Notes: generated from the letters alone by a model not told the origin. 24,000 nt of DNA from Parasutterella muris (GCF_943193095.1 NZ_CALPCV010000006.1:39145-63144), one strand, 5' to 3'. Positions 202 through 14,700 are shown, counted from the first letter of the stretch. Numbers and translations: made by a program.

Positions 202-825
202 TCAATTTTTTTCGTCAATGTGCGACAAAAGACGCGTAATGTCGGAGACCGACTGAAGTTTCAGCTTTCTCGAGGCGTTCTGCCGATGTACTTCCACGGT
301 TCTCTCAGACAGCGACAGCCTCTCGGCAATTTCCTTATTGATCAGACCGGACGCCACAAGACGAATCACCTGTTTCTCCCGGTTGGTCAGCGTTTCAAAC
401 CGTTTAATCTCATCGGTTGATTCAATCGTCCAGCCTCGGTGACTTTCATCCCACTTCACCGCCTTGGCAACCGCTTCCAAAAGTCTTGACTCATTAAGAG
501 GCTTCTGAATAAAGTCCACCGCGCCGTCCTTCATGGCCTGCACCGCCATGTCCAAGTCCCCGTGCCCGGTCAGAAAAATAACAGGAGTCGCGTATCCGCG
601 AGAACGCATTTCTTCCAGCACTTCAAGACCGCTCATCCCGGGCATCGCTACGTCTAAAATCACGCAGCCGAGCACGGACGGGCTGTCGCCGACGAGGAAG
701 TCTCTCCCGCCTGAATAACACTCTACGCACCAACCATCCGTTTCCAGAAGAAACTTCAGAGCGCCGGAGAACGATGTGTCATCATCAACGATTCGTATGA
801 GCGTTTTCTGCAGCCTTTTTTCCAT
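202..825 (-). CDS. Two-component response regulator, receiver domain plus LuxR/FixJ (NarL-type) HTH output domain
   Basis: The ORF track protein contains a receiver domain (IRIVDDD ... ILDVAMPGMSGLE ... PVIFLTGHGD ... DFIQKP) and a C-terminal LuxR HTH (LTNREKQVIRLVASGLINKEIAERLSLSERTVEVHRQNASRKL). I prefer the ATG at 825, giving MEKRLQ..., because GAGG lies 6 nt upstream. The track start at 837 has no Shine-Dalgarno. The gene overlaps the 3' end of the kinase gene. Confidence 0.9.
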   Translation of the reverse strand: MEKRLQKTLIRIVDDDTSFSGALKFLLETDGWCVECYSGGRDFLVGDSPSVLGCVILDVAMPGMSGLEVLEEMRSRGYATPVIFLTGHGDLDMAVQAMKDGAVDFIQKPLNESRLLEAVAKAVKWDESHRGWTIESTDEIKRFETLTNREKQVIRLVASGLINKEIAERLSLSERTVEVHRQNASRKLKLQSVSDITRLLSHIDEKN

Positions 826-2596
826 GATTCGCCTCATGAAGCGGCAAAGTGATTAAAACACTAAGACCGCCGACGTTATTTCGACTAAAAGAGATCTTTC
901 CGCCGTAGTTTTCAACTATTCCGCGAACAATCTGCAGTCCGAGCCCTAACCCGGTGGATTTGTCAGACTGTGTCGGTTCATTGAAAAGACTCAGCTTTTC
1001 TTCCGATAAATTTCCATTGTCACAGATCCTTAGCTCTGCGCGCTTTGCATCTTCAAAGATACTGACGGTAATCTTCGGGTGCTTGATATTCTGTTTGGTG
1101 AGCGCCTCGGACGCGTTTCTCAGCAGGTTGACAATACAAAGTTCTATTTCCAAGGCATTGACGTATACTATCGCCCTGCTGTTAAAGCGTGTCACAATCC
1201 CGGACTCTGAGCCTGTCTGTCGATTAAATTCACGAATAGACTTTGCCGCGAGCTCACTCAGCGCCAATGTCTGTCTTCCGCTGTCCCGACCTTTAGCGTA
1301 TTGTCTTACCCGATCGACAATTGCGGATGCCATATCCGCGTCTGCACGCATCTCTTCAAGTACCTCCTTCATCTTCGCTTCCGTGAGCATGCCGGCTTCA
1401 GAGGCGCGCTGAAGCGCTCTGGCGTATAACTTAATACTCGCTAAAGGCTGATTCAGTTCATGCGCGATCAGTCCGGAGACCTGACCGACAACCCCGGCTC
1501 TCTGCATTCTTAAAAGTCTTTCGTTAGCAGCTTTTGCCTCTTGAAACGTCTTATTCTCCCGCTCAAGAGAGACTCTGAGCTGTCGAGTCCGCCGCTCTAC
1601 AAGTTTGGAGACTAAGTACGTGTAAGTGAGCAAAAGAAGAAGCATTGCGCCGGCGCCTAACAAGACGTACTTGTATTCGTGAAGCATCCGCCCAAACCAA
1701 AGCCTGCTGAATCGCTGGTAAGCACCGAGATTCAGCGCGCGAAGGAGCGTATCAAGTTCAGTGTAGTCGCTCGCGACCGACCAATGAATCCCAAGCGCGG
1801 TCGGTTTCTGATGAATAAGCGCGGCTGTTACCGCCGAAACATAAGCCGCCGGAAGATTCGGGCTTGAACCAATACTCCAATTAGGATACAGCGCAGTCGA
1901 ATGCAGGCAGATATGTTCGTCTTCCGGCTGAAGGTTAATAAATTTCAATCGAGTCGGATCCACAACTTTTCGATTGACGGCATCTTCCAAATAACAAATT
2001 CTAAGAATGCCGACATCTGCTTTTCCTGTCAGCACATCTTCGATGATCTTGTCTCGGTCAAGCCCGTAAAAAGAGGTCCCGGAAAAGAACTGCTGAGGGT
2101 TGTAGCCGGCTTTAGCCACTTCGCCCATCGCCGCAAGATACATTCCGAACGCAGTCACTCTGCCAGCCGCCGCCTTTTTTCCTTTTAAATCGTCAATCGT
2201 GTTCAAGTCCTTTCGATCGGCATTCACGATGATGAGCGAACCTTCGCTTTTATTCGGATCTTTGGAAAACGGCGATGAGGCGGTCACCATGTCGCGCAGC
2301 CCGATATCCTGAAACCGGCGAACCGTGCTGCTCGTTGCGAGATAAAAATCCGCCGTCTTCTTCTCCATCATCTCTTCGATTTCCGGAAGCTCGGCGTATT
2401 TCACTTCCAGCCTGCGCGGGTATACATTCCGACGAATGGTTTCAATCGTTTCGTTAACGAATGCCTGATTCAGCAGCGGATTAACTGCAGAATTAATAAC
2501 GAACACAAGCGGCGGATGCGCTTTTACTTCAGCAAAAGCAACCGGCGCACACAAAAGCTCGACAGCGATCAGAGAAATCAGGATAAAAGGCTTCAT
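785..2596 (-). CDS. Sensor histidine kinase with an N-terminal periplasmic solute-binding (PhnD/TtrS-type) domain, one further TM helix, and HisKA plus HATPase_c domains
   Basis: The 603-aa ORF has a signal peptide or TM1 (MKPFILISLIAVELLCAPVAFA) followed by a periplasmic region of about 290 aa that resembles a solute-binding protein. TM2 is VLLGAGAMLLLLLTYTYLV. The H-box is AHELNQPLASI, and the ATPase G-boxes are DNGNL and STGLGLGLQIV. This architecture matches TtrS/ThsS-like sensors. The ligand is unknown. Confidence 0.85.
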   Translation of the reverse strand: MKPFILISLIAVELLCAPVAFAEVKAHPPLVFVINSAVNPLLNQAFVNETIETIRRNVYPRRLEVKYAELPEIEEMMEKKTADFYLATSSTVRRFQDIGLRDMVTASSPFSKDPNKSEGSLIIVNADRKDLNTIDDLKGKKAAAGRVTAFGMYLAAMGEVAKAGYNPQQFFSGTSFYGLDRDKIIEDVLTGKADVGILRICYLEDAVNRKVVDPTRLKFINLQPEDEHICLHSTALYPNWSIGSSPNLPAAYVSAVTAALIHQKPTALGIHWSVASDYTELDTLLRALNLGAYQRFSRLWFGRMLHEYKYVLLGAGAMLLLLLTYTYLVSKLVERRTRQLRVSLERENKTFQEAKAANERLLRMQRAGVVGQVSGLIAHELNQPLASIKLYARALQRASEAGMLTEAKMKEVLEEMRADADMASAIVDRVRQYAKGRDSGRQTLALSELAAKSIREFNRQTGSESGIVTRFNSRAIVYVNALEIELCIVNLLRNASEALTKQNIKHPKITVSIFEDAKRAELRICDNGNLSEEKLSLFNEPTQSDKSTGLGLGLQIVRGIVENYGGKISFSRNNVGGLSVLITLPLHEANHGKKAAENAHTNR

Positions 2597-3762: not shown

Positions 3763-4227
3763 ATGCAGACCGTAATCTTTGATACCAATCTCCTGCTTGA
3801 TTTCTTTGTTTTCCGCGATAAAACAACCGCTCCGCTTTGGGAGGCTGCTTGCGCGGGACAATTCCGAACCGTCACAACACAGGAGGCGATTGATGAATTC
3901 AAAGATATACTGACCAGACCGGCTTTTAATCTGACGCAAAAGGCTCAGGAAGAAGCGCTTAAAGACTTTTTATCCGTCGCAGAAAACGTGGCAGTCACAA
4001 CTGAAGCACAAGCACGGTGCAGAGACCCTTTGGATCAGAAATTCATCGATCTCGCAGTGAGTGAGGCGCCTGCCGTTCTCATCACCAAAGATAAATTGGT
4101 GCTTCGCTGCGCGAAAAGAATAAAAAAGACCGGCTCAGTGATTTGCTCACCAAGCACGGCCTTACTGAATCCCGATCTCGTTAAAACGCCGCAGCCGTCT
4201 CCGCTTTCTGATTCAGTTCAGCGTTAA
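3763..4227 (+). CDS. PIN-domain protein (PIN_3 / TIGR00305-like putative toxin ribonuclease), with no adjacent antitoxin
   Basis: 154-aa ORF. The N-terminus VIFDTNLLLDFF matches the first acidic PIN motif. The later motifs QEAIDEF, DPLDQKFIDLAV and VLITKDK match the remaining acidic positions of this family. The ATG directly abuts the mdh terminator T-tract and has no Shine-Dalgarno. The 3' end overlaps nagZ by 47 bp. Confidence 0.7.
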   Translation: MQTVIFDTNLLLDFFVFRDKTTAPLWEAACAGQFRTVTTQEAIDEFKDILTRPAFNLTQKAQEEALKDFLSVAENVAVTTEAQARCRDPLDQKFIDLAVSEAPAVLITKDKLVLRCAKRIKKTGSVICSPSTALLNPDLVKTPQPSPLSDSVQR

Positions 4228-5254
4228 ACGCCTCAATCATCTCCACACACGTCTTGTAGTTGGCATTCAGTTCAAGCCCGTCACGGCTCGGGAATTTGCC
4301 GCGCGGAAGAATTCTGGCCAAACGCTCATCAAAGAGTTTTGTGCGAATCCAGCGCTGGTTGGCGAGAACCTGCTGAACTCCGTCCGGATCGTTGCAGATC
4401 AGGATCATGTCACATCCGGCAGCAAACGCCGCGTCACTGCGGGCGGTAATCTCACCGATCTCCGCCGCGCCCTTCATGCTCAGGTCGTCACTGAAAATCA
4501 AACCTGTGAATCCAAGTCTTGTCCGAAGCTCTTCCTGAAGCCATTTCTTAGAAAAGCCTGCAGGAGCGGAATCGACCTGAGAATAGGCCACGTGCGCGGG
4601 CATCACTGATGTCAGGAGTACGCCCAGAGATTTATACGGAACTTCATCATTGCTGCGAATATCCGATAAGGATCTGTCATCCACCGGAAGCTCAACATGA
4701 GAATCCGCAGACGCATAGCCGTGTCCCGGGAAATGCTTGCCGCAGCAGGCCATTCCGGCCTGGGACATTCCGCCGATCAGCGCGGTCGCAAGAATGCTCA
4801 CAACTCTCGGATTGCGATGGAATGAACGCGTGCCGATAACCACGCTCTGACCGTAGTCCAAGTCCAGACAGGGCGCAAAGGTGAAATCCACACCGCAGGC
4901 ACGAAGTTCAGCAGCCATAACCAAACCGCAGGCTGCCGCCAGACTATGTGCGCGCTGCGGCTCTTTATCATAAAGCTGACCAAGTGAATTCATCGAAGGA
5001 ATGCGGGTAAAACCCTCACGGAATCTCTGAATTCTGCCGCCTTCATGGTCCACGCCGATAATCAGCGGGGGATTGCGCAGCGCGTGAATGTCATGCGTCA
5101 GATTGTGCAGCTGATCGATATTCTCGAAATTGCGTGTGAACAAAATCACCATGCCGACCATCGGATGCTGAAGAAGCTTGATTTCTTCATCCGTCAGTTC
5201 CGTTCCGGCAATATCAACCACCAAGGGTCCAAGCGGACGATCTACTTTTTCCAT
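4181..5254 (-). CDS. nagZ: Beta-N-acetylhexosaminidase NagZ (glycoside hydrolase family 3, peptidoglycan recycling)
   Basis: Family motifs are present: GVDHEGGRIQRF, GVDFTFAPCLDL, KHFPGHG and FSDDLSMKGA. I prefer the ATG at 5254..5252, giving MEKVDRPLG..., because it overlaps the acpS stop codon as TAATG. The track start at 5272 is a TTG codon. Confidence 0.9.
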   Translation of the reverse strand: MEKVDRPLGPLVVDIAGTELTDEEIKLLQHPMVGMVILFTRNFENIDQLHNLTHDIHALRNPPLIIGVDHEGGRIQRFREGFTRIPSMNSLGQLYDKEPQRAHSLAAACGLVMAAELRACGVDFTFAPCLDLDYGQSVVIGTRSFHRNPRVVSILATALIGGMSQAGMACCGKHFPGHGYASADSHVELPVDDRSLSDIRSNDEVPYKSLGVLLTSVMPAHVAYSQVDSAPAGFSKKWLQEELRTRLGFTGLIFSDDLSMKGAAEIGEITARSDAAFAAGCDMILICNDPDGVQQVLANQRWIRTKLFDERLARILPRGKFPSRDGLELNANYKTCVEMIEAFNAELNQKAETAAAF

Positions 5255-5646
5255 TAATCTTTCCTTTCGCAAATCACTACGGCGATCGCCGTAGTTTCAC
5301 AATCGCTCAGCGAGATGTGAAACCGCATCGCGCGGCTTTCTATTTCCTCGGCAAGCGCGCCTCCAAACTTCAGGTACGGCGCCCCGAGCTCATTGTTCAG
5401 CACACTGATATCGCCAAAATTGACGCTTCCTCTGAAACCGGTGCCCATCGCCTTTGAAAACGCTTCCTTCGCCGCCCAGCGGGAGGCTAGGTAGCGCAGA
5501 CCTCGGACACGCGATAGCGAATTTCTATGATCATATACAACCCGCTCGTCTTCAGACAACACCGTACGGGCAAAATTAGGCTGTCTTGTGCAGGCTTTCT
5601 CTATTCGGGCGATTTCTACGATATCGCAGCCCAAGCCGCCGATCAT
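5254..5646 (-). CDS. acpS: Holo-[acyl-carrier-protein] synthase
   Basis: 130-aa ORF beginning MIGGLGCDIVEIARIE, with RWAAKEAFSKA further in; both are typical of AcpS. Its start overlaps the stop of the upstream gene as ATGA. Confidence 0.9.
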   Translation of the reverse strand: MIGGLGCDIVEIARIEKACTRQPNFARTVLSEDERVVYDHRNSLSRVRGLRYLASRWAAKEAFSKAMGTGFRGSVNFGDISVLNNELGAPYLKFGGALAEEIESRAMRFHISLSDCETTAIAVVICERKD

Positions 5647-6149
5647 TTGTCCTCTCCGCTGCCGCTGTACTTACCCCAGCGATTATCCTCCGGAAAACTC
5701 GGAAGACTCATCACGCCGAATGAAACCGCGGTGAGCGCGCCTAACGGCGCCCAAATAAACCAGTTGTAGCTCTGCATCATCGCGAATTCCGCCAGGCAGT
5801 AAAAGATCAGAATCTGCGGCATCCATGCCCACAGCGCGGATTTGTTGGCGTCGTGAAGACGACGCACCGAAATCGCTGCGGACGGTACCGCAATGTAAAG
5901 CCAGCCGCAGATCAGAAGTCCGAGAAATACTAAAACCGTATCTGTGGCGGTATCGCTGATCCACATCAGGACGGCTAAATAAAGTACGGTAAAAATCCAA
6001 AAGCGATAAAAACGAGCTCTGCCCGTGCGCCCTCCGAAATCGGTATAGCCGATCGTCATATCAAGATAAAGATCTCGAATCACAGGCGGCATTTTGTCGA
6101 CGTAGGAAGCCAGTTCAAAAGGATTTTTTCCGGGTGTCGGATTTTTCAT
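5643..6149 (-). CDS. DUF805 family inner-membrane protein
   Basis: 168-aa ORF with several hydrophobic helices and the family signature: GRTGRARFYRFW ... ISVRRLHDANKSALWA ... NRWGKY. It starts 5 nt after the recO stop and overlaps the acpS start. Confidence 0.85.
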   Translation of the reverse strand: MKNPTPGKNPFELASYVDKMPPVIRDLYLDMTIGYTDFGGRTGRARFYRFWIFTVLYLAVLMWISDTATDTVLVFLGLLICGWLYIAVPSAAISVRRLHDANKSALWAWMPQILIFYCLAEFAMMQSYNWFIWAPLGALTAVSFGVMSLPSFPEDNRWGKYSGSGEDK

Positions 6150-6154
6150 AACTG

Positions 6155-6859
6155 CTAAATCTTTTTAAGTTCATTAAGGATCCGCCGGGTGTTCAGCGGA
6201 ATTTCCTCGAGATAATAACCGATAAGGTCACGGGTTAACATTCGGGCTTCCCTCTCCTGCTCTCCGGGCTGCAGAGTTCTGGAAATCAGCGCGCGCAGCG
6301 TATCGGAAGAGACTCCGGCGTTTTCCAAAGCGGTGTTGTCCGAAGCGATCAGGTCCCCCACCACAAAGCGGTATCTCGATGCCGGAAAGGGACCCTCAGG
6401 CAGGCCGTAACCAAGTGCGTTCAGAAAATCAAGCTCAAAGTAGCGCAGCGTCACAAGCGGCTCTTCGCCCGAAGCGAGTTTCTTCAGTGTCTCGTAGTAG
6501 GATTTAAACAGCGCCTGCTCCGGAACTCCTCTGGGCAAAAGCCGCACCAGAAGCTCATTGATATAAAACGCCGACATCAGAAACTTTTCTCCGAGGGGAA
6601 TCGTGCCGTACCATTCCGCACGAATCAGATTCTTAATCTCGCCTTTGCCGGAGTAAGAAATCGCAAGCGGACAAAAGGGATTTAACAAACCCCTGTATTG
6701 GGACATCGGGCGCTTTGCGCCTCTTGCAACAAGCGACATGCGGCCGAAATCGCGCGTAAAAAACTCCACGATCAGACTGGTCTCCTTCCAGGGATACGTG
6801 TGCAGCACAAAAGCGGGCTGCCCGTTGACGCGGAAGTCCGAACGAGCTTTTTCTGCCAT
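6155..6859 (-). CDS. recO: DNA repair protein RecO
   Basis: 234-aa ORF. The N-terminal OB-fold region is AFVLHTYPWKETSLIVEFFTRDFGRMSLVARGAKR. Length and the neighbourhood with era and acpS fit RecO. Confidence 0.9.
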   Translation of the reverse strand: MAEKARSDFRVNGQPAFVLHTYPWKETSLIVEFFTRDFGRMSLVARGAKRPMSQYRGLLNPFCPLAISYSGKGEIKNLIRAEWYGTIPLGEKFLMSAFYINELLVRLLPRGVPEQALFKSYYETLKKLASGEEPLVTLRYFELDFLNALGYGLPEGPFPASRYRFVVGDLIASDNTALENAGVSSDTLRALISRTLQPGEQEREARMLTRDLIGYYLEEIPLNTRRILNELKKI

Positions 6860-6866
6860 TTAAAAA

Positions 6867-6875
6867 TAATGTCCT
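6867..6875. repeat. Left copy of the exact 9-bp direct repeat TAATGTCCT bounding the era-recO insert
   Basis: Read directly from the sequence. On the coding (minus) strand it is AGGACATTA, 7 nt upstream of the recO ATG. An identical copy lies at 10356-10364. Confidence 0.6.
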
Positions 6876-7111
6876 TTCATCAGTGGTCCGACTATTTTAG
6901 CGGCTGCAGTCGGCACGGCTCAAATCGAAAACACTCTGTTACGCACATCCCCGACTCGCCTCTGTCAACGACTCTCACGGGAAAAGAAACATTTACTCAC
7001 GGACTTTTTAAGGGAAACCACTAATTCATCAGATATATTACATATAAATACCTGTGATTAAGTATTTTTACTAATCGTAAATACGTTATTCAGCTTTTTA
7101 GGAGCGGAACA

Positions 7112-8482
7112 ATGAAAAAACCTTTTTACAAGGTCCTTTATGTGCAGGTGCTTGCTGCTATCGCTCTCGGCGTCCTGCTGGGATTCTTTTGGCCGGACCT
7201 CGGCGCGAAGATGAAGCCGCTTGGAGACGGCTTCATCAAGCTAATTAAAATGCTCATCGCTCCGGTCATTTTCTGCACTGTCGTCACCGGCATCGCCGGT
7301 ATGGAAAACATGAAGAAAGTCGGCAAGGTCGGAGGCTTAGCTCTTCTCTACTTCGAGGCGGTGACGACGCTCGCACTGATCATCGGTCTTCTCATGGTGA
7401 ATCTCTTTCAGCCGGGAAGCGGCATGCATGTGGACCCGTCCACACTCGACATGAGTTCGGTATCAATGTACGCGGCCTCAGAAAAGCCGCAGTCAACACT
7501 TGATTTCATATTTCACATTATTCCGTCTACCATTGTCGGCGCCTTTGCCGAAGGAGAAATCCTCCAGGTTTTATTCTTCTCGGTCATCTTCGGGTTCGCT
7601 CTGCAGCATCTGGGCGGCGTTAACCATCCGGTCTACAGTCTGATTAAGAAAGGATCCGACATCCTTTTCACCATGATCGGATGGATCATGAAAGTCGCTC
7701 CGATCGGTGCATTCGGCGCTATGGCGTTTACCATCGGCAAATATGGTATTCATACACTGATCCCGCTCAGTAAACTGATGTTGGTTTTTTACGCCACCTG
7801 TCTGTTTTTTATTATCTTTATTCTCGGCGCGATCTGTCGAAGCTGTGGGTTTTCTCTTTTTAAATATCTTGCCTACATTAAAGAGGAACTTTTAATTGTG
7901 CTCGGCACGTCTTCATCCGAGGCGGTTCTTCCGCAAATGATGAAGAAAATGGAACAAGCTGGCGTCAGTAAATCCGTAAGCGGCCTTGTCATTCCGACCG
8001 GTTACTCGTTCAACCTTGACGGTACAGCGATCTATCTGACAATTGCCGCAGTCTTTATCGCACAGGCCTGCGATATTCAAATGACGCTCAGCCAGCAGAT
8101 CACGCTGCTTCTGGTGCTCCTTCTGACAAGTAAAGGAGCAGCCGGTGTCTCGGGTTCCGGCTTCATCGTACTTGCAGCAACATTGAGCGCAGTCGGTGAT
8201 GTCCCAGTCGCCGGACTTGCGCTTATCCTCGGCGTAGATCGTTTCATGAGCGAAGCACGTTCCATCACCAACATGATCGGAAACGGCATCGCCTGTGTCG
8301 TCGTCGGCCGCTGCGTAGGTGAGCTGGATAAAGCGCGGCTCACCAAGATGCTTACCGCCAAACGCGACATCATCGCGGATCTGGAAGCCGACCTCGGGAA
8401 AGTCGAAGAGAAATTAGGGGGCGAGCTCACTTCCGCTGTTAACGAAACAGCCCTGCTGCCCGCAAAAGGCCTGAACGATTAG
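7112..8482 (+). CDS. dctA: C4-dicarboxylate:cation symporter DctA (DAACS family)
   Basis: The 456-aa ORF aligns by eye along its full length with E. coli DctA: [59 protein letters not shown] and [23 protein letters not shown]. An AGGAG Shine-Dalgarno is present. Confidence 0.95.
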
Positions 8483-9654
8483 AGTCGGTATTCGGAAATT
8501 TTCCCTTCACACGGGTATCCTGCGCTAATCCACAGAATACCCGAAGTCACGCCCATCACCATGGCGTAAACCGTGCAGTAGCGCTCTCCGCTCTGGCGAG
8601 GATCTTCGTGATAACAAACGGATTCCGGATAAAGTTCATGATCGCTCAGCAGTCGGAAAAGTCCTTTCATGCCGATCGGTCCCTTCATCTTGGAGAGCTG
8701 TCTCTGCACCCCGTTCAGCCGCGTATAGGTTGAGGAAATAAAACTCTTGGCAACGTCTTTAGGCGCAATCAGAGCGGACAGATAATGATTGGTGTGAACG
8801 AGCGCCTCGCCTTTACTCATGATCACATCAAATGCGTCCGGAGAAAATTCAACCTGCATCTCATAATTGCTGCGCGAAGCGATATTAAAGACTCCGGAAC
8901 CAGCCCTAGGAACAGCCGAAACCGCCTTTAGAGCTTCTGTCGGCAGGCTTGAATTCAGAATATTGCGCATCATCAGATGCAGCGGCATGCCGATTTTGCC
9001 TTTGCCGACGGAAGCGGCATTGAGACAGACGCCAAGACCCTCGGAATTCAGCCCCTTGCCTCCGACCAAACCGGCCTCGCAGACCATCAGAATCTCAGGG
9101 CGGCCTTCCTGCTCCACTTTCAGAATCACGGAGTTGGATCTTGCCTTTGCAAGCCAGTCCCAGGTTTGCCCCATGAACACATTGCCGCCTTCACCTAATT
9201 CAGCCGGAACCATAATGCAGGTACATGCGTCCGAGTTTGCAAACAAAACTTCGCTTCGGCAATTCAGCGTGAGAATGTCTTCAAAAGATTTTCCGCTTCC
9301 CTGCGCGATTCCCTTCATTTCCTCAATGGACTCAGGACTGTACTTTTGAATGACCGGTAAAAATTTTGCCGCCAGCGACTTCGCTTTCTCCCAGTCAATT
9401 CCTGCGGATGACTGAAAGACCGATGCATAAAACTTAATGTTTCTGTCTATCTGCTCAGCGGCACTTTGACCGTACGTGACGCCCCTCTGCAGCGCGGAAC
9501 CTTTCAATTCGATAAAAGGATAGAAGGGCTGCTTTTCAATTTCAGGCGAATGAATGTTAGGGACCGACAGCTCCGAGGCGACTTTCGCCTGCGCAGCAAA
9601 ACCACAGAAAGCGCTGCTGACAAGCGCGGCGATAAATTTTCTTCGGATGATCAT
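8479..9654 (-). CDS. Secreted peptidase C45 / acyl-CoA:6-aminopenicillanic-acid acyltransferase-like Ntn hydrolase
   Basis: 391-aa ORF with signal peptide [24 protein letters not shown]45-family landmarks are present: [17 protein letters not shown], a candidate nucleophile in DACTC, GQTWDW, VHTNHY and LSDHE...VCYHE. The substrate is unknown. Confidence 0.75.
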
Positions 9655-9741
9655 TTGTTCAAGTATTTGTAAGTTCGATCTTGGAATTATGACCGTTTAT
9701 TGCCCGAAATACCCGCCCGTCCGTAAATATTTTTAGCATAC

Positions 9742-9780
9742 AAAAAAAATCGGGACTCGACGTCCCGATTTATTTTGTTT
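9742..9780. terminator. Bidirectional rho-independent terminator, serving the orphan gene on the minus strand
   Basis: An A8 run is followed by ATCGGGAC-TCGAC-GTCCCGAT and then TTTATTTTGTTT. On the minus strand the hairpin is followed by T8, 10 nt after the stop codon of the orphan ORF. Confidence 0.7.
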
Positions 9781-9789
9781 GCAAGACTT

Positions 9790-10248
9790 TTACTTAGTCA
9801 GAAGTCTTGTCAGTTTGGTGATGCAGTCACGGCGCCAGAAGAGATGATTCTTGCGCACAGGCTCTCCGCCGAGGCTTTCGCAGTAAAGGTCCAAAGCTTT
9901 TTCAAGCGATTTCTTTGCTTCCGGGCCTTCAACTCCGAGAAGCTTGTTGATACGGTTGACCGCAATGACAGTCTTGTCATTGCTCTTGGTACCCGAGCCG
10001 TATGCAATCCATCTTGCAGGGATGAAATGCATCGCATCGTCCCAAATATACACAGCGAAATACTCGCCTCTCTTGACAATGTCCAGACGATCCTTCTTGC
10101 TGAGTTTTTCAAATGCGCGAATGTTCTTAACCAGAGCTTTGCGGCTGTCTGCGAGGTTCTTCTGATAACGGACGTTCTCACGTTCGAGAGTGTATTGCTT
10201 ATTCAATTTACGCCTCCGTATCTGACGATATATCTGTAATCCGTGCAT
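9790..10248 (-). CDS. Hypothetical protein with no family I can recognise; basic coiled-coil-like N-terminus and a mixed alpha/beta C-terminal part
   Basis: The ORF has natural-looking charged composition and is bracketed by intrinsic terminators on its own strand. The track start is the ATG at 10248, which has a poor Shine-Dalgarno. An in-frame TTG at 10206 is preceded by GGAGG (10217..10213) with a 6-nt spacer, which would give a 138-aa product starting MNKQYTLERENV. Confidence 0.6.
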   Translation of the reverse strand: MHGLQIYRQIRRRKLNKQYTLERENVRYQKNLADSRKALVKNIRAFEKLSKKDRLDIVKRGEYFAVYIWDDAMHFIPARWIAYGSGTKSNDKTVIAVNRINKLLGVEGPEAKKSLEKALDLYCESLGGEPVRKNHLFWRRDCITKLTRLLTK

Positions 10249-10315
10249 CCTAACGAACTTACACGATAATAAGTAATTACCCTGACCTTTTTGAGCACCT
10301 TTCCCGTTTTTCAGG

Positions 10316-10353
10316 CATAAGAAAAACCTCCGAACCCAATCTTGAGTCGGAGG
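10316..10353 (-). terminator. Rho-independent terminator after era
   Basis: On the minus strand, CCTCCGA-13 nt loop-TCGGAGG is followed by TTTTTCTTAT. It begins 26 nt after the era stop codon. Confidence 0.7.
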
Positions 10354-10355
10354 CT

Positions 10356-10364
10356 TAATGTCCT
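10356..10364. repeat. Right copy of the exact 9-bp direct repeat TAATGTCCT bounding the era-recO insert
   Basis: Read directly from the sequence. It lies 14 nt downstream of the era stop codon and immediately before the era terminator hairpin. Confidence 0.6.
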
Positions 10365-10378
10365 AAAAAGCTTACAGA

Positions 10379-11296
10379 TTACTGACCATAGCCGAGGGAC
10401 TTGAGAACACCGGCATCGTCGCCCCAGCCCTTGCGAACTCGAACCCAGACTTCCAGATAAACTTTCTTGCCAAGCATTTCTTCAATATCTTCGCGCGCCA
10501 GTCTGGAAATTTCACGAAGTTTCGCGCCTTTTTCGCCGATCACGATGCCTTTATGGCTTTCGCGGTTAACGATCAGTGTCGCAAAGATTCGCGCAAGCTT
10601 GTCGGTTTCTTCCCACTTATCGATCATGACGGCGACACCGTACGGCAGCTCATCGCCCAAGAGGCGGAAAGCCTTCTCACGAATAATTTCCGCAGCCAGG
10701 AAGCGCGGAGATTTATCCGTATAAATGTCGTCTTCAAACAGTTTGTCGCCTTCCGGAAGGAACTTTCTGATCACTTCAAGAAGTACCTTGAGCTGACGAC
10801 CCTTCTCTGCGCTCACAGGGACGACTTCGGCAAACGGGAACTTCTGCATCGACTCGGTAATGAGAGGAAGCATCGCCTCGCTTTCCTTAACTTCATCGGT
10901 CTTGTTGATCGCAAGAATGACATTCTTTGCTTCTTTTGAAAGAAGCGAGAGAACCGTCAGGTCTTCGGGACGCCAGCCGGTCGCTTCAATGACGAGAACC
11001 ACCGCATCAACGTCCGCAAGGCTCGATTTAACTGACTGATTCATTCTGGACAAAAGTTCAGAAGAATGTTTCGTTTGGAAACCCGGTGTGTCCACAAAGA
11101 TATACTGGGTGTCGTCGGTGGTTAATACACCCATGATGCGGTCTCGTGTGGTCTGTGGCTTCTTGCTCGTGATGCTGACCTTCTCGCCGACAAGTGCGTT
11201 GATCAGTGTGCTCTTGCCGACGTTCGGACGGCCGATCACGGCAACATATCCGCTGCGGAATTCTTTAGTTTCTTCTGTAACTGTGTTTTCTGTCAT
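10379..11296 (-). CDS. era: GTPase Era
   Basis: 305-aa ORF with G1 GRPNVGKST, G3 DTPG and G4 NKTD motifs. The C-terminal KH domain contains VNRESHKGIVIGEKGAKL. Confidence 0.95.
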   Translation of the reverse strand: MTENTVTEETKEFRSGYVAVIGRPNVGKSTLINALVGEKVSITSKKPQTTRDRIMGVLTTDDTQYIFVDTPGFQTKHSSELLSRMNQSVKSSLADVDAVVLVIEATGWRPEDLTVLSLLSKEAKNVILAINKTDEVKESEAMLPLITESMQKFPFAEVVPVSAEKGRQLKVLLEVIRKFLPEGDKLFEDDIYTDKSPRFLAAEIIREKAFRLLGDELPYGVAVMIDKWEETDKLARIFATLIVNRESHKGIVIGEKGAKLREISRLAREDIEEMLGKKVYLEVWVRVRKGWGDDAGVLKSLGYGQ

Positions 11297-11299
11297 AAC

Positions 11300-11986
11300 T
11301 TAGCCTTTCAATTTCTTAACGGCTTCGCTGTCCAGAGCTTTCTGCGCGGCTTCCTGTTCCGCCTGTCTGCGGGAACGGCCGACGCCTTGAAGGTTAATGT
11401 CCAGTTTCGGAACGCTCACGCTCACCAGGAACTCCTGATCGTGCGGCAGTCCGCGAACCTCCAGTACTTCATACACCGGCAGACCGTAATGATGGCCCTG
11501 CAGTACTTCCTGCAGGCGGGTCTTCGGGTCTTTGCCCAGCGTATCCGGCGTCAGCTTGCTCAGCATCGGCTCATATAAGCGAATGATGACAGTTTGCGCC
11601 GATTCGAAGCCGGAGTCGGTGAAAACCGCCCCAAATATGGCTTCTACTGCATCCGCAATAGTTGACGGACGACGATTTCCTCCAGTATGCAGCTCACCCT
11701 CGCCAACGCGAAGGAATTCGGAAATACCGATGCGTTCTGCGATTTCCGCAAGGGCGGACTGTTTGACAAGGTTGCTGCGAACGCGTGAAAGAGAACCCTC
11801 GTCAAAATGCTTGTCCTTCAAAAATAAGGCGTTGCCGATGACGCAGTTCAGCACGGAGTCTCCGAGAAACTCCAAACGCTCGTTGTTTTCCGAAGAAAAA
11901 GAGCGGTGTGTCATCGCGCGCTTCAAAAGCGATTCGTTTTTGAACTTATAACCGATTCTATTTTCAAGTTCACTGAGAGGCAGCAT
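11300..11986 (-). CDS. rnc: Ribonuclease III
   Basis: 228-aa ORF with the RNase III signature ERLEFLGDSVL and a C-terminal dsRBD (GVGRSRRQAEQEAAQKAL). An AGGAG Shine-Dalgarno is present. The stop codon lies 3 nt before the era start. Confidence 0.95.
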   Translation of the reverse strand: MLPLSELENRIGYKFKNESLLKRAMTHRSFSSENNERLEFLGDSVLNCVIGNALFLKDKHFDEGSLSRVRSNLVKQSALAEIAERIGISEFLRVGEGELHTGGNRRPSTIADAVEAIFGAVFTDSGFESAQTVIIRLYEPMLSKLTPDTLGKDPKTRLQEVLQGHHYGLPVYEVLEVRGLPHDQEFLVSVSVPKLDINLQGVGRSRRQAEQEAAQKALDSEAVKKLKG

Positions 11987-11994
11987 ATTTGCTC

Positions 11995-12885
11995 CTAGTC
12001 AAAGAAACCGATGCGGCTCGGCTTCGAAAGATTCATCCAAATCATATTGGCCCGTCCGACTAAATTTTTCTCCGGCACAAAACCCCAGTAGCGGCTGTCT
12101 TCGGAGTTGTCGCGGTTATCACCAAGGACGAAATATGTGTCCTTGGGCACGGTGCAGATCAATCCGCCTCTCACGTAATCACAAGCGTCGGGGTTGTTGT
12201 GAATCGGAAGCGGATAAGCGCCGGCAGGGGCCGCGCGATTGTTGAGAATACGGTGATCCTTCTTACCGAGCTGCTCGACAAACTGATCAAGCTCCTGCAT
12301 CTTGGCTTCATCGTAATACTTACCGTCAGCGGTGACGGGCACAGGCTTCCCATTAATGGTCAGCCGCTTGTTGATGTATTCAATCTTGTCGCCAGGCAAA
12401 CCGACAACACGCTTGATGTAGTCAATTTTTTCATCCGCGGGATAACGGAAGACAATCACATCGCCTCTTTCAGGCTCACCGATCGAAACAATCTTGGTGT
12501 TCAGCACCGGCAGACGCAGACCGTAGTTATATTTGTTCACTAAAATCATGTCGCCGCTTTCAAGCGTCGGCATCATAGATCCGCTCGGGATTCTGAAAGG
12601 CTCAAAAATGAATGAGCGCAGAATGAAAATAAAGAAAATTACCGGAAAGAAACCGGCAGTATATTCAAGCCACTTGGGACGCTCATTCATGCGCGTGACC
12701 ATCGCAGAGCGAGCTGCCACCACGGACTGTACGCCTCTGCGCAGCGCATCTTCGTTGCTTCTGTCGAACTGCTGCAGTTCATCAGACATGACTTTGACGC
12801 GTTTAGGTTTCCAGACAAATACATCAAGAACCCACAGCACGCCTGTAAAAACGGTCAGGAGGAAAAGAATGAGAGAAAAAGTCAT
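11995..12885 (-). CDS. lepB: Signal peptidase I
   Basis: 296-aa ORF with an N-terminal TM helix. The catalytic Ser box is IPSGSMMPTL and the Lys box is YIKRVVGLPGD. A GDNRDNSEDSRYWGFVP box is also present. Confidence 0.95.
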   Translation of the reverse strand: MTFSLILFLLTVFTGVLWVLDVFVWKPKRVKVMSDELQQFDRSNEDALRRGVQSVVAARSAMVTRMNERPKWLEYTAGFFPVIFFIFILRSFIFEPFRIPSGSMMPTLESGDMILVNKYNYGLRLPVLNTKIVSIGEPERGDVIVFRYPADEKIDYIKRVVGLPGDKIEYINKRLTINGKPVPVTADGKYYDEAKMQELDQFVEQLGKKDHRILNNRAAPAGAYPLPIHNNPDACDYVRGGLICTVPKDTYFVLGDNRDNSEDSRYWGFVPEKNLVGRANMIWMNLSKPSRIGFFD

Positions 12886-12906
12886 AGTGATGCTCCTCGA
12901 TGAGGG

Positions 12907-14700
12907 TTATTTGTCGTCTTGCTGAAGAATTGCAAGGAAGGCTTCCTGCGGAATCTCGACGGTACCGACCTGCTTCATGCGTTTCTTACCAGCTTTCTGT
13001 TTTTCCAGCAGTTTGCGTTTACGCGTAATGTCACCGCCGTAACACTTGGCAAGCACGTTCTTACGAAGCGCTTTCACGTTTTCACGCGCGATAATGTTTG
13101 CGCCGATGGCCGCTTGAATGGCGACGTCATACATCTGTCTCGGAATAATGCCGCGCATCTTGGAAACAATTTCACGGCCGCGGGAAACCGAGTTGGCTCG
13201 GTGCACAATGCTTGAGAGCGCGTCCACCTTATCACCGTTAATCATGATATCGATCTTGACGACATCAGAGGCTCTGTACTCTTTGAACTCGTAATCCATA
13301 GAAGCATAGCCGCGGGTCAGTGACTTAAGCTTGTCGAAGAAGTCCAAAACGATTTCCGCGAGCGGAAGGTCATAATGCAGATGCACTTGTCTGCCGTGAT
13401 AGGCGAGGTTCGTCTGAATACCGCGCTTCTGGTTGCAGAGCGTCATGACCGCGCCGACATACTCGTCCGGCACAAAAATAGTCACTGAATCGATAGGTTC
13501 GCGGATTTCCGCGATCTTATCCACCGGCGGCAACTTTGAAGGATTCTCAACATGGATAACATCGCCGTTGCGCAGCAGTACTTCGTAGACCACGCTCGGC
13601 GCGGTCGTAATCAAATCCATGTTGTATTCGCGCTCGAGACGCTCCTGCACAATATCCATGTGCAGCAGCCCGAGAAAGCCCGCTCTGAAACCGAAACCGA
13701 GCGCCTGAGAAACTTCCGGTTCAAAGTGCAGAGCCGCGTCGTTAAGCTGCAGCTTCGTGAGCGCATCGCGAAGCGCTTCGTACTGGTTTGATTCCACCGG
13801 GTAAAGGCCCGCAAACACCTGACTCTTAACTTCCTTAAAGCCGGGAAGCGGCTCCGAAGCCGGATTCTGAGCGCTTGTGACCGTATCACCGACTCGGGCG
13901 TCTTTCAATTCTTTGATTCCGGAAATCACAAAGCCCACCTGCCCTGCGCTGAGCTCGGTCTTCGTCTGAGATTTCGGTGTAAAGATGCCGACCTGTTCAA
14001 CCAAATGGTTTGCACCGGTCGCCATCAGACGGATCTTATCTTTCGGATGAAGTGTTCCGTTCACAACACGCACCAGCATCACAACGCCGACATAGTTATC
14101 GAACCAGGAGTCGATAATTAGCGCCTGCAGCGGCGCTTTCGGGTCGCCCTTAGGCGCAGGGACACGCTCCACAATGCGTTCAAGAATTTCATCGATGCCA
14201 AGACCGGTCTTGGCAGAGGCTTCAACCGCGTCCGTCGCGTCAATTCCGATGACTTCTTCGATTTCTTCACGGGCTTCATCAGGATTTGCGCTCTGAAGAT
14301 CCATCTTATTGAGAATCGGAAGCACTTCGACGCCGAGCTCAATGGCGGTATAGCAGTTGGCAACTGTCTGAGCTTCCACACCCTGCGTGGCGTCCACAAC
14401 AAGCAACGCACCTTCGCAGGCTGAAAGCGAACGGCTGACTTCGTAGCTGAAGTCAACGTGTCCCGGGGTATCAATAAGATTTAATAAGTACGTTTGGCCG
14501 TCTTTAGCCTTGTAATTGAGAGAGGCGGTCTGAGCCTTAATAGTAATGCCGCGCTCTTTTTCCAGATCCATGGAGTCCAGGACCTGAGATTCCATCTCTC
14601 GCTCGGAAAGACCGCCGCAGCGCTGAATCAAGCGATCAGCGAGCGTGGATTTGCCGTGGTCGATATGAGCGATAATAGAAAAGTTTCTGATCTGCTTCAT
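12907..14700 (-). CDS. lepA: Translation elongation factor 4 (LepA)
   Basis: 597-aa ORF. GTPase motifs [14 protein letters not shown] and NKMD are present, along with the LepA-specific C-terminal domain. Confidence 0.97.

Follow-up and report, generated by a model that had tools for sequence, protein, structure and literature searches.

Our results support a model in which the 3.48 kb that separate era from recO in a 24,000-nt stretch of Parasutterella muris DNA (the window, meaning that whole stretch) probably represent a lineage-specific islet of accessory genes that accumulated at a permissive site, rather than one mobile cargo with a target-site duplication. A preliminary description made from the sequence alone had placed a small orphan gene, a gene for a secreted C45-family hydrolase and dctA in this interval, and Pfam and NCBIfam matches confirm that content. 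It had also read an exact 9-bp direct repeat, close to the ends of era and recO, as the target-site duplication or attachment core of a single inserted unit. That interpretation is contradicted by a relative that carries the orphan gene alone (L065), by the repeat sites of a relative with the same layout (L069) and by conspecific contigs that have AGGATATTG at the recO-side site. It is further contradicted by the lack of an empty site, by unrelated cargo in two other relatives (L001 and L066), by a 162-nt spacer in a third (L064) and by the native composition of the segment. The host belongs to the Parasutterella clade of the Sutterellaceae (its Era is 88–89% identical to those of P. excrementihominis and Turicimonas muris), and 1,420 blocks of the assembly collection contain an identical RecO protein, which makes the host species a common one.

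In E. coli and other proteobacteria, rnc, era and recO form an operon. We found relatives of the window through a lookup of RecO homologues and then their contigs, and compared about 20 kb around the locus in each, reading gene maps and junction sequences directly. In eight Sutterellaceae loci (Turicimonas L005, L006 and L032, as well as L007–L010 and L014), era and recO either overlap (ATGA) or are separated by about 25 nt at most, and in two more distant Burkholderiales that served as outgroups (L012 and L013) they are adjacent, within 56 nt. This bears out the earlier statement that the two genes are normally contiguous. Because adjacency is seen both in the related Sutterellaceae and in the outgroups, it is, as judged from gene order, the ancestral state in the family, and the intervening DNA in the window is a lineage-specific addition. 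The genes on either side (DUF805-acpS-nagZ downstream of recO; rnc-lepB-lepA upstream of era) stand in the order first described, and recO-DUF805-acpS-nagZ is identical in order in all relatives examined.

Inside the Parasutterella clade, the era-recO gap takes at least four states. L064 (RecO 76% identical to that of the window) has a 162-nt gap with a terminator and no gene, and its recO is preceded by GAAAGGACC. L065 (RecO 77%) has a terminator, a 137-aa gene 80% identical to the orphan and another terminator, with neither C45 nor dctA. L001 and L066 (RecO 76% and 70%) hold an unrelated 6-kb block that encodes a DUF362 protein, an FMN_bind/FAD flavoprotein, a LuxR response regulator and a histidine kinase. 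The start of this block is also present in L003, L004 and L011, and in L135 (RecO 74%) a 590-aa minus-strand gene upstream of recO, which has no Pfam record, may, we infer, be its histidine kinase. The window layout itself recurs in L069 (RecO 97%; genes 87–97% and spacers 82–84% identical in nucleotides) and in all 20 conspecific contigs. No boundary repeats were found around the other cargoes at the era-recO site.

Neighbour-joining trees of three protein sets (RecO; RecO, DUF805, AcpS and NagZ; RecO, Era, Rnc and LepB) all agree in placing ((window, L069), L065) as sister to ((L001, L066, L067), L064), with L007 and Turicimonas outside. Between the window and L065, Era ends in YGQ in both and is 93% identical, NagZ is 83%, the orphan 80% and RecO 77% identical; a divergence of the orphan like that of its neighbours is as expected if all had been inherited together vertically. 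The orphan-recO spacer of L065 is 126 nt long and has no remnant of C45 or dctA. When we aligned this spacer to the window in order to place breakpoints, the T-run of the terminator was the only match, the DNA being too diverged. The era-side junction is common to the window and L065 and is therefore at least as old as their split. A one-event duplication would have to be that old, and would thus require that 18 of its 18 bases remained unchanged where the intergenic DNA no longer aligns. If C45-dctA arrived later, the left boundary of that acquisition would lie between the orphan terminator and C45, so that the two 9-mers would belong to different events and would not be a duplication.

The 9-mer itself is real. 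TAATGTCCT occurs exactly twice on the plus strand of the window (Table 1), and its distances from the era stop codon and the recO start codon, 14 and 7 nt, are as originally described. Its expected count in the window is 0.13, and two copies were reached in 1 of 100 shuffles. To estimate how often such a match arises by chance, we shuffled the two intergenic regions (130 and 252 nt, about 40% GC) 20,000 times with their dinucleotides preserved. A direct 9-mer common to both regions at any position has P = 0.13, and one in either direct or inverted orientation has P = 0.25; if a direct 9-mer must also lie no farther than 30 nt from each gene end, P falls to 0.004. The position is nominally unusual but was picked post hoc, and on its own it is neither decisive nor trivial. 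Exact repeats of 9–12 nt are frequent in the 3.8-kb region covered by our repeat search. A separate observation is a 12-nt exact inverted match, AGCTTTTTAGGA, between 10361–10372, just past era and overlapping the 9-mer, and 7092–7103, in the 5' untranslated region and ribosome-binding site of dctA; about 0.4 matches of this type are expected by chance in the region, and a second, unrelated one exists (I13).

Polymorphism within the species and the comparison with L069 bear directly on the repeat. The era-side copy is unchanged in 20 of 20 conspecific contigs, and the recO-side site is polymorphic, with AGGACATTA in 13 of the 20 and AGGATATTG in 7 (35%), the latter being the derived allele when L069 serves as the outgroup. 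In L069, which has the same layout, the era-side site reads AAAACTTAA, identical to the window at 5 of 9 positions, and the recO-side site reads AGGACATGA, which matches its era-side counterpart at only 5 of 9 positions. The intergenic regions of L069 share another 9-mer, TATGAATAA, away from the boundaries. On the recO side, AGGA alone is constant: it is in all alleles of the window group, and L064 also has it at the same place. This conservation upstream of recO is consistent with a predicted ribosome-binding site. Most likely, the two 9-mers are a coincidence of two AT-rich stretches that bear AGGA, one overlapping the recO ribosome-binding site and the other forming the A/U-rich lead-in of the era terminator.

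Signs of mobility are lacking around the segment, as the preliminary description had already noted for a transposase, an integrase and terminal inverted repeats; scans for protein families, repeats, tRNA genes and Rfam families agree. No open reading frame of the segment matched a transposase or recombinase in Pfam, NCBIfam, PHROGs or PADLOC, and there is no tyrosine or serine recombinase gene in 6860–10378 or in the flanking genes. A repeat search of 6700–10500 revealed no terminal inverted repeats that pair the ends of the segment, the nearest candidates being I5 (81%, partly in recO) and I7 (a 12-mer matching the dctA 5' untranslated region). The window contains no tRNA or tmRNA gene, and the Rfam scan was also without a match. 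A plasmid search gave no match, and a phage collection gave generic dctA matches only. Composition, which the preliminary description had proposed to compare with that of the flanking genes, does not deviate in GC content at third codon positions (GC3), codon usage or tetranucleotides: the cargo genes have GC3 of 0.56–0.61 and codon-usage distances of 0.11–0.17, inside the core-gene range, and the tetranucleotide distance of the segment (0.186) equals that of a core segment (0.186). The slightly lower GC content of the segment is due to its long spacers.

The empty site predicted earlier, a 30-nt spacer of the form TAA-tctgtaagcttttt-AGGACATTA-tttttaa-ATG, is present in no relative. A metagenome scan for TTTTTAGGACATTATTTTT returned 63 unrelated matches and none near era or recO, a weak negative since an exact match was required. 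The preliminary description had itself set two findings against its interpretation, namely unrelated junctions in relatives where era and recO are also separated, and a segment composition like that of the core; both are what we observed.

Gene maps, junction sequences, polymorphism and composition are direct observations; the order of events and the route of recombination we infer as follows. In the ancestor of the Parasutterella clade, the tight era-recO junction would have opened to a spacer with a terminator and a separate promoter and ribosome-binding site for recO, a state that L064 would retain. Once era and recO were uncoupled, insertions at this point could have left both genes unharmed, and the gap would have been filled in a different way in each lineage. 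The small orphan gene would have been gained by the ancestor that the window species shares with L065, and the window/L069 lineage would later have gained the convergent C45-dctA pair between the orphan terminator and the recO promoter. The L001/L066 lineage would have gained its unrelated block of DUF362, flavoprotein, response regulator and histidine kinase genes. The most likely route would be illegitimate recombination or relocation of resident genes, after which homologous recombination via the conserved flanks could have spread them.

Other explanations have to be weighed against this history. It is very unlikely that the whole 3.48 kb arrived in one event that duplicated AGGACATTA, whether a transposition or a Campbell-type crossover at microhomology or a 9-bp core. 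An exact 9/9 direct repeat near both gene ends (the positional P of about 0.004), the neat 30-nt spacer left when the insert and one copy are removed, and the ancestral adjacency of era and recO would all fit such an event. However, it leaves the L065 orphan without C45 and dctA to be accounted for, and survival of 18 of 18 bases since the split from L065 is very unlikely. L069 has the same layout but only 5 of 9 positions agree between its two sites, the species itself is polymorphic for the recO-side copy, and the real near-empty site, the 162-nt spacer of L064, is unlike the predicted one. An empty site was found neither in relatives nor in the metagenome scan, the segment lacks a transposase, an integrase, terminal inverted repeats and a tRNA, and its composition is native. 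A related idea, to which we give only a slim chance, is that the gap is a targeted landing site at which a marker-less process (for example, microhomology-mediated capture of circular DNA beside the era terminator) acted at least three times with different cargo; the 9-bp repeat would then be a true footprint, decayed in L069 and in some strains. It is extremely unlikely that the 9-mers are held identical by a common function, such as one regulator or small RNA that links era termination to recO translation. Both 9-mers do stand at regulatory positions (terminator lead-in and ribosome-binding site) and the era-side copy is invariant in 20 contigs, but the identity is missing in L069 and in 7 of the 20 conspecific contigs, there is no Rfam family match, and the recO side conserves AGGA only.

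A different order of events, with the 9-mer still a coincidence, is unlikely but deserves more weight: the orphan, C45 and dctA may have been gained together in the ancestor of the window and L065, and C45-dctA subsequently lost in L065. On the tree this is no less parsimonious than two separate gains, the 4-nt overlap of C45 and dctA implies that at least these two travel together, and the cargo is fully adapted to host composition. Yet the 126-nt spacer of L065 keeps no trace of either gene, the orphan is separable from the pair and has its own strong terminator, a member of the orphan family stands alone at another locus beside thrS (L068), and in four relatives the C45 homologue is accompanied by neither dctA nor the orphan. 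Several points weigh against an islet assembled in steps. Besides the position of the 9-mers near both gene ends, two gains and one gain plus a loss in L065 are equally parsimonious. No outgroup aligns on the era side to show the ancestral state there, which leaves a small probability for a real old duplication that has decayed in L069 alone. The intergenic DNA of L065 has diverged too far from that of the window to place the donor and breakpoints of C45-dctA, and for each relative the absence of a second copy of the segment applies to about 20 kb around the locus. 

The islet would have grown in a gap where transcription of the flanking genes is probably already uncoupled: the rnc-era-recO operon appears to be split in the Parasutterella clade by a terminator after era and a promoter-like site of recO. 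The strong terminator that the preliminary description placed on the era side is supported by folding (-24 kcal/mol), and a sigma-70-like promoter is predicted upstream of recO. The era terminator hairpin is retained in L069, where one stem pair differs on both sides, and L064, L065 and L001 have terminators after era that are not homologous to that of the window. The terminator past the orphan was called on both strands in a terminator scan, and every cargo gene or pair comes with a terminator and a regulatory region of its own. As a candidate for the right boundary, a recO promoter common to both sub-clades was rejected: the window and L001 have a 31-nt patch in common, but its identity of 55% is too low to be of use. 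In two conspecific contigs (L046 and L059) the orphan-C45 spacer is 42 nt shorter, a length polymorphism in or near the orphan terminator region.

Table 1. Features at and around the era-recO interval, in window coordinates and in descending order.
Feature	Position	Strand	Remarks
lepA	12907-14700	-	
lepB	11995-12885	-	
rnc	11300-11986	-	
era	10379-11296	-	GTPase Era, 305 aa; Pfam MMR_HSR1 and KH_2; end of lepA-lepB-rnc-era run
era stop codon	10379-10381	-	
era-side 9-mer	10356-10364	+	coding strand AGGACATTA; 14 nt past era stop; last base inside terminator stem
Predicted intrinsic terminator of era	10320-10358	-	stem CCTCCGA...TCGGAGG, then UUUUUCUU; -24.2 kcal/mol, z = -3.8
Orphan gene	9790-10206	-	138 aa from TTG 10206; 152 aa from ATG 10248 (9790-10248)
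Terminator hairpin past orphan (predicted)	9736-9782	.	A-/T-run flanks; 21-nt arms 90% complementary; -25.8 kcal/mol, z = -7.8
C45-family (N-terminal nucleophile, Ntn) autoproteolytic acyltransferase/hydrolase	8479-9654	-	secreted, 391 aa; PF03417, NF040521
dctA	7112-8482	+	C4-dicarboxylate transporter, 456 aa; PF00375, NF002461
dctA/recO divergent intergenic region	6860-7111	.	39% GC; promoter scan; 83% identity to L069
Predicted sigma-70-like recO promoter	TTGAGC 6923-6918; TAAAAT 6899-6894		18-nt spacer; promoter scan
recO-side 9-mer	6867-6875	+	coding strand AGGACATTA; 7 nt ahead of recO ATG; overlaps likely ribosome-binding site AAAGGA
recO	6155-6859	-	234 aa; Pfam RecO_N and RecO_C; ATG 6857-6859
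DUF805	5643-6149	-	
acpS	5254-5646	-	
nagZ	4181-5272	-	

The two larger cargo genes are convergent and overlap by 4 nt, and both products score above the curated cut-offs of their families. DctA scores 670 bits against NF002461 (cut-off 513) over residues 1–418 and 398 bits against PF00375. The C45 protein scores 242 bits against NF040521 (cut-off 85) over residues 51–372 and also matches PF03417; it is a full-length proenzyme with a Sec-type signal peptide ending in AQA|K. The pairing of a periplasmic amidohydrolase with an adjoining importer suggests a role in the release and uptake of a dicarboxylate or amino acid, and we would expect such hydrolase-plus-importer cargo to suit an asaccharolytic gut bacterium. 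Homologues of the C45 protein, with 63–67% identity, occur at other loci in related Parasutterella. In L070 (6886–9173) and L136 (3226–5521) the homologue adjoins a divergent LysR-type regulator gene, and in L071 (8001–10671), from the same sample as the contig L064 with the near-empty site, it lies between aroC and a convergent Na+/alanine symporter gene. The pairing of hydrolase and importer may be a recurrent one. Since homologues are present at other loci in related genomes, the C45 gene may have reached this site by relocation or exchange within the genus and not from a distant source.

The orphan gene most likely starts at TTG 10206, which would give a product of 138 aa and correct the gene given in the preliminary description: GGAGG precedes this start, which most gene calls share and which L065 also uses. 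The window and L069 encode proteins with 100% identity from nucleotide sequences that differ by 5%, which indicates that the gene is under strong purifying selection. No family match was found in Pfam, NCBIfam or PADLOC, and PHROGs gave marginal matches only (E = 0.01–0.04). Among 5.8 billion sequences, the orphan forms only three clusters at 90% identity. The only other member of the close family, 59% identical, lies alone and divergent beside thrS-infC (L068, 2732–3157), so the orphan family is not bound to the era-recO site. Searching 1.84 billion representative proteins with a profile returned 56 at E <= 0.001, of which one is the L065 orphan and the others are remote homologues that share a domain of about 110 aa with the orphan (motif RGxxFVxY...FAPSRFxGY..N...DG..TN...IL...LE..Y..YC..LG..P...R.FW). 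This domain is N-terminal to an HNH nuclease in 19 of 53 scanned homologues and to an AAA_5 McrB-like module in 1 of 53; the remaining scanned homologues are stand-alone proteins of about 125 aa. By these profile matches, the orphan is a stand-alone copy of an undescribed domain.

An AlphaFold2 model of the orphan built from 26 sequences had a predicted local distance difference test score (pLDDT) of 88 and a predicted template modelling score (pTM) of 0.80; one built from 3 sequences had a pLDDT of 47 and was unusable. No sequence match was found in the PDB, and a Foldseek search of the model against the PDB and BFVD gave none. The domain context suggests, as a lead and not a result, that the orphan may be a nucleic-acid target-recognition domain of restriction-like nucleases, here without the nuclease. 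Type IV (modification-dependent) restriction enzymes of the HNH and McrB types carry an N-terminal target-recognition domain, for example EcoKMcrA NEco (PMC7145662 and PMC6182155), and an orphan-type domain placed N-terminal to HNH or AAA_5 matches the architecture usual for these enzymes. Unlike these readers of modified DNA, the orphan has no match to the McrA N-terminal domain (matches to 6ghc are restricted to the HNH part), no nuclease domain and no counterpart of its fold in the PDB.

Among known kinds of insertion, the interval resembles an insertion-sequence or transposon target-site duplication in having a short exact direct repeat around a block absent from the ancestral arrangement, but there is neither a transposase nor terminal inverted repeats, the repeat is not conserved in L069 with the same insert, the block is composite, and neither a second copy nor an empty site was found in the loci of roughly 20 kb and the collections searched. 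Like an integrase-mediated island with attL and attR sites formed by a Campbell-type event, it places cargo between core genes with a direct repeat at both ends. In contrast to such islands, it has no integrase or excisionase, no tRNA or tmRNA target, a native composition and no attB-like empty site that we could find, and the putative core is only 9 bp, polymorphic and missing in L069. The closer parallel is the chromosomal hotspot or islet, in which one core interval is empty in some lineages and holds accessory genes of unrelated kinds in their relatives, self-mobility genes are lacking and conserved flanks could permit exchange by homologous recombination. Oliveira, Touchon and Rocha reportedly carried out comparative work on hotspots of horizontal transfer in 2017. 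The present locus differs in its small scale (0.16–6 kb), in its native composition and in that its genes were perhaps relocated within the genome instead of being taken up from outside. Our literature search found nothing specific to the era-recO locus of Parasutterella. With respect to the rnc-era-recO operon, lepA-lepB-rnc-era is intact in the window and recO directly follows era in related Sutterellaceae, often with overlapping codons, whereas the Parasutterella clade has a terminator past era and a promoter-like site for recO.

Additional variation was seen at and near the locus. The L001-type cargo was not copied recently from the two-component module at 202–2596 of the window, as the proteins are 28% and 49% identical. 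In L002 (UBA7131), the sequence at 10912–12078 diverges about 70 nt past the era stop codon into masked Ns with no recognisable open reading frame; the contig ends soon after this stretch, which may be an assembly break or a repeat at the same junction and was not used. A few kilobases away, L064 has an AAA_14/DUF4143 ATPase gene (12745–14013) between nagZ and the PIN gene, a further variable spot. In the window, the PIN_3-domain gene (3763–4227, plus strand) is convergent with nagZ, the listed open reading frames overlapping by 47 nt, and no antitoxin partner for it is evident in the window's open reading frame list. In the conspecific contig L054 (12264–14323), the histidine kinase gene downstream of ldh (window 785–2596) is reduced to one for a 236-aa periplasmic Phosphonate-bd protein; the response regulator is absent and the flavoprotein gene comes directly next.

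In summary, a 9-bp repeat that seemed to be an insertion footprint is shown otherwise by a sister lineage, by conspecific strains and by a relative with half of the cargo, and the call is corrected: the variable gap is best read as housing a small accessory islet of an ordinary kind. The orphan, well folded by prediction, belongs to an undescribed domain family which elsewhere occurs joined to nuclease modules of the HNH or McrB type. For the Parasutterella clade the result is a modest one, in that the conserved rnc-era-recO arrangement is split and the gap is a small variable region with species-specific metabolic or sensory genes. The added dctA and secreted C45 hydrolase may bear on the amino-acid and dicarboxylate lifestyle of a widespread gut species.

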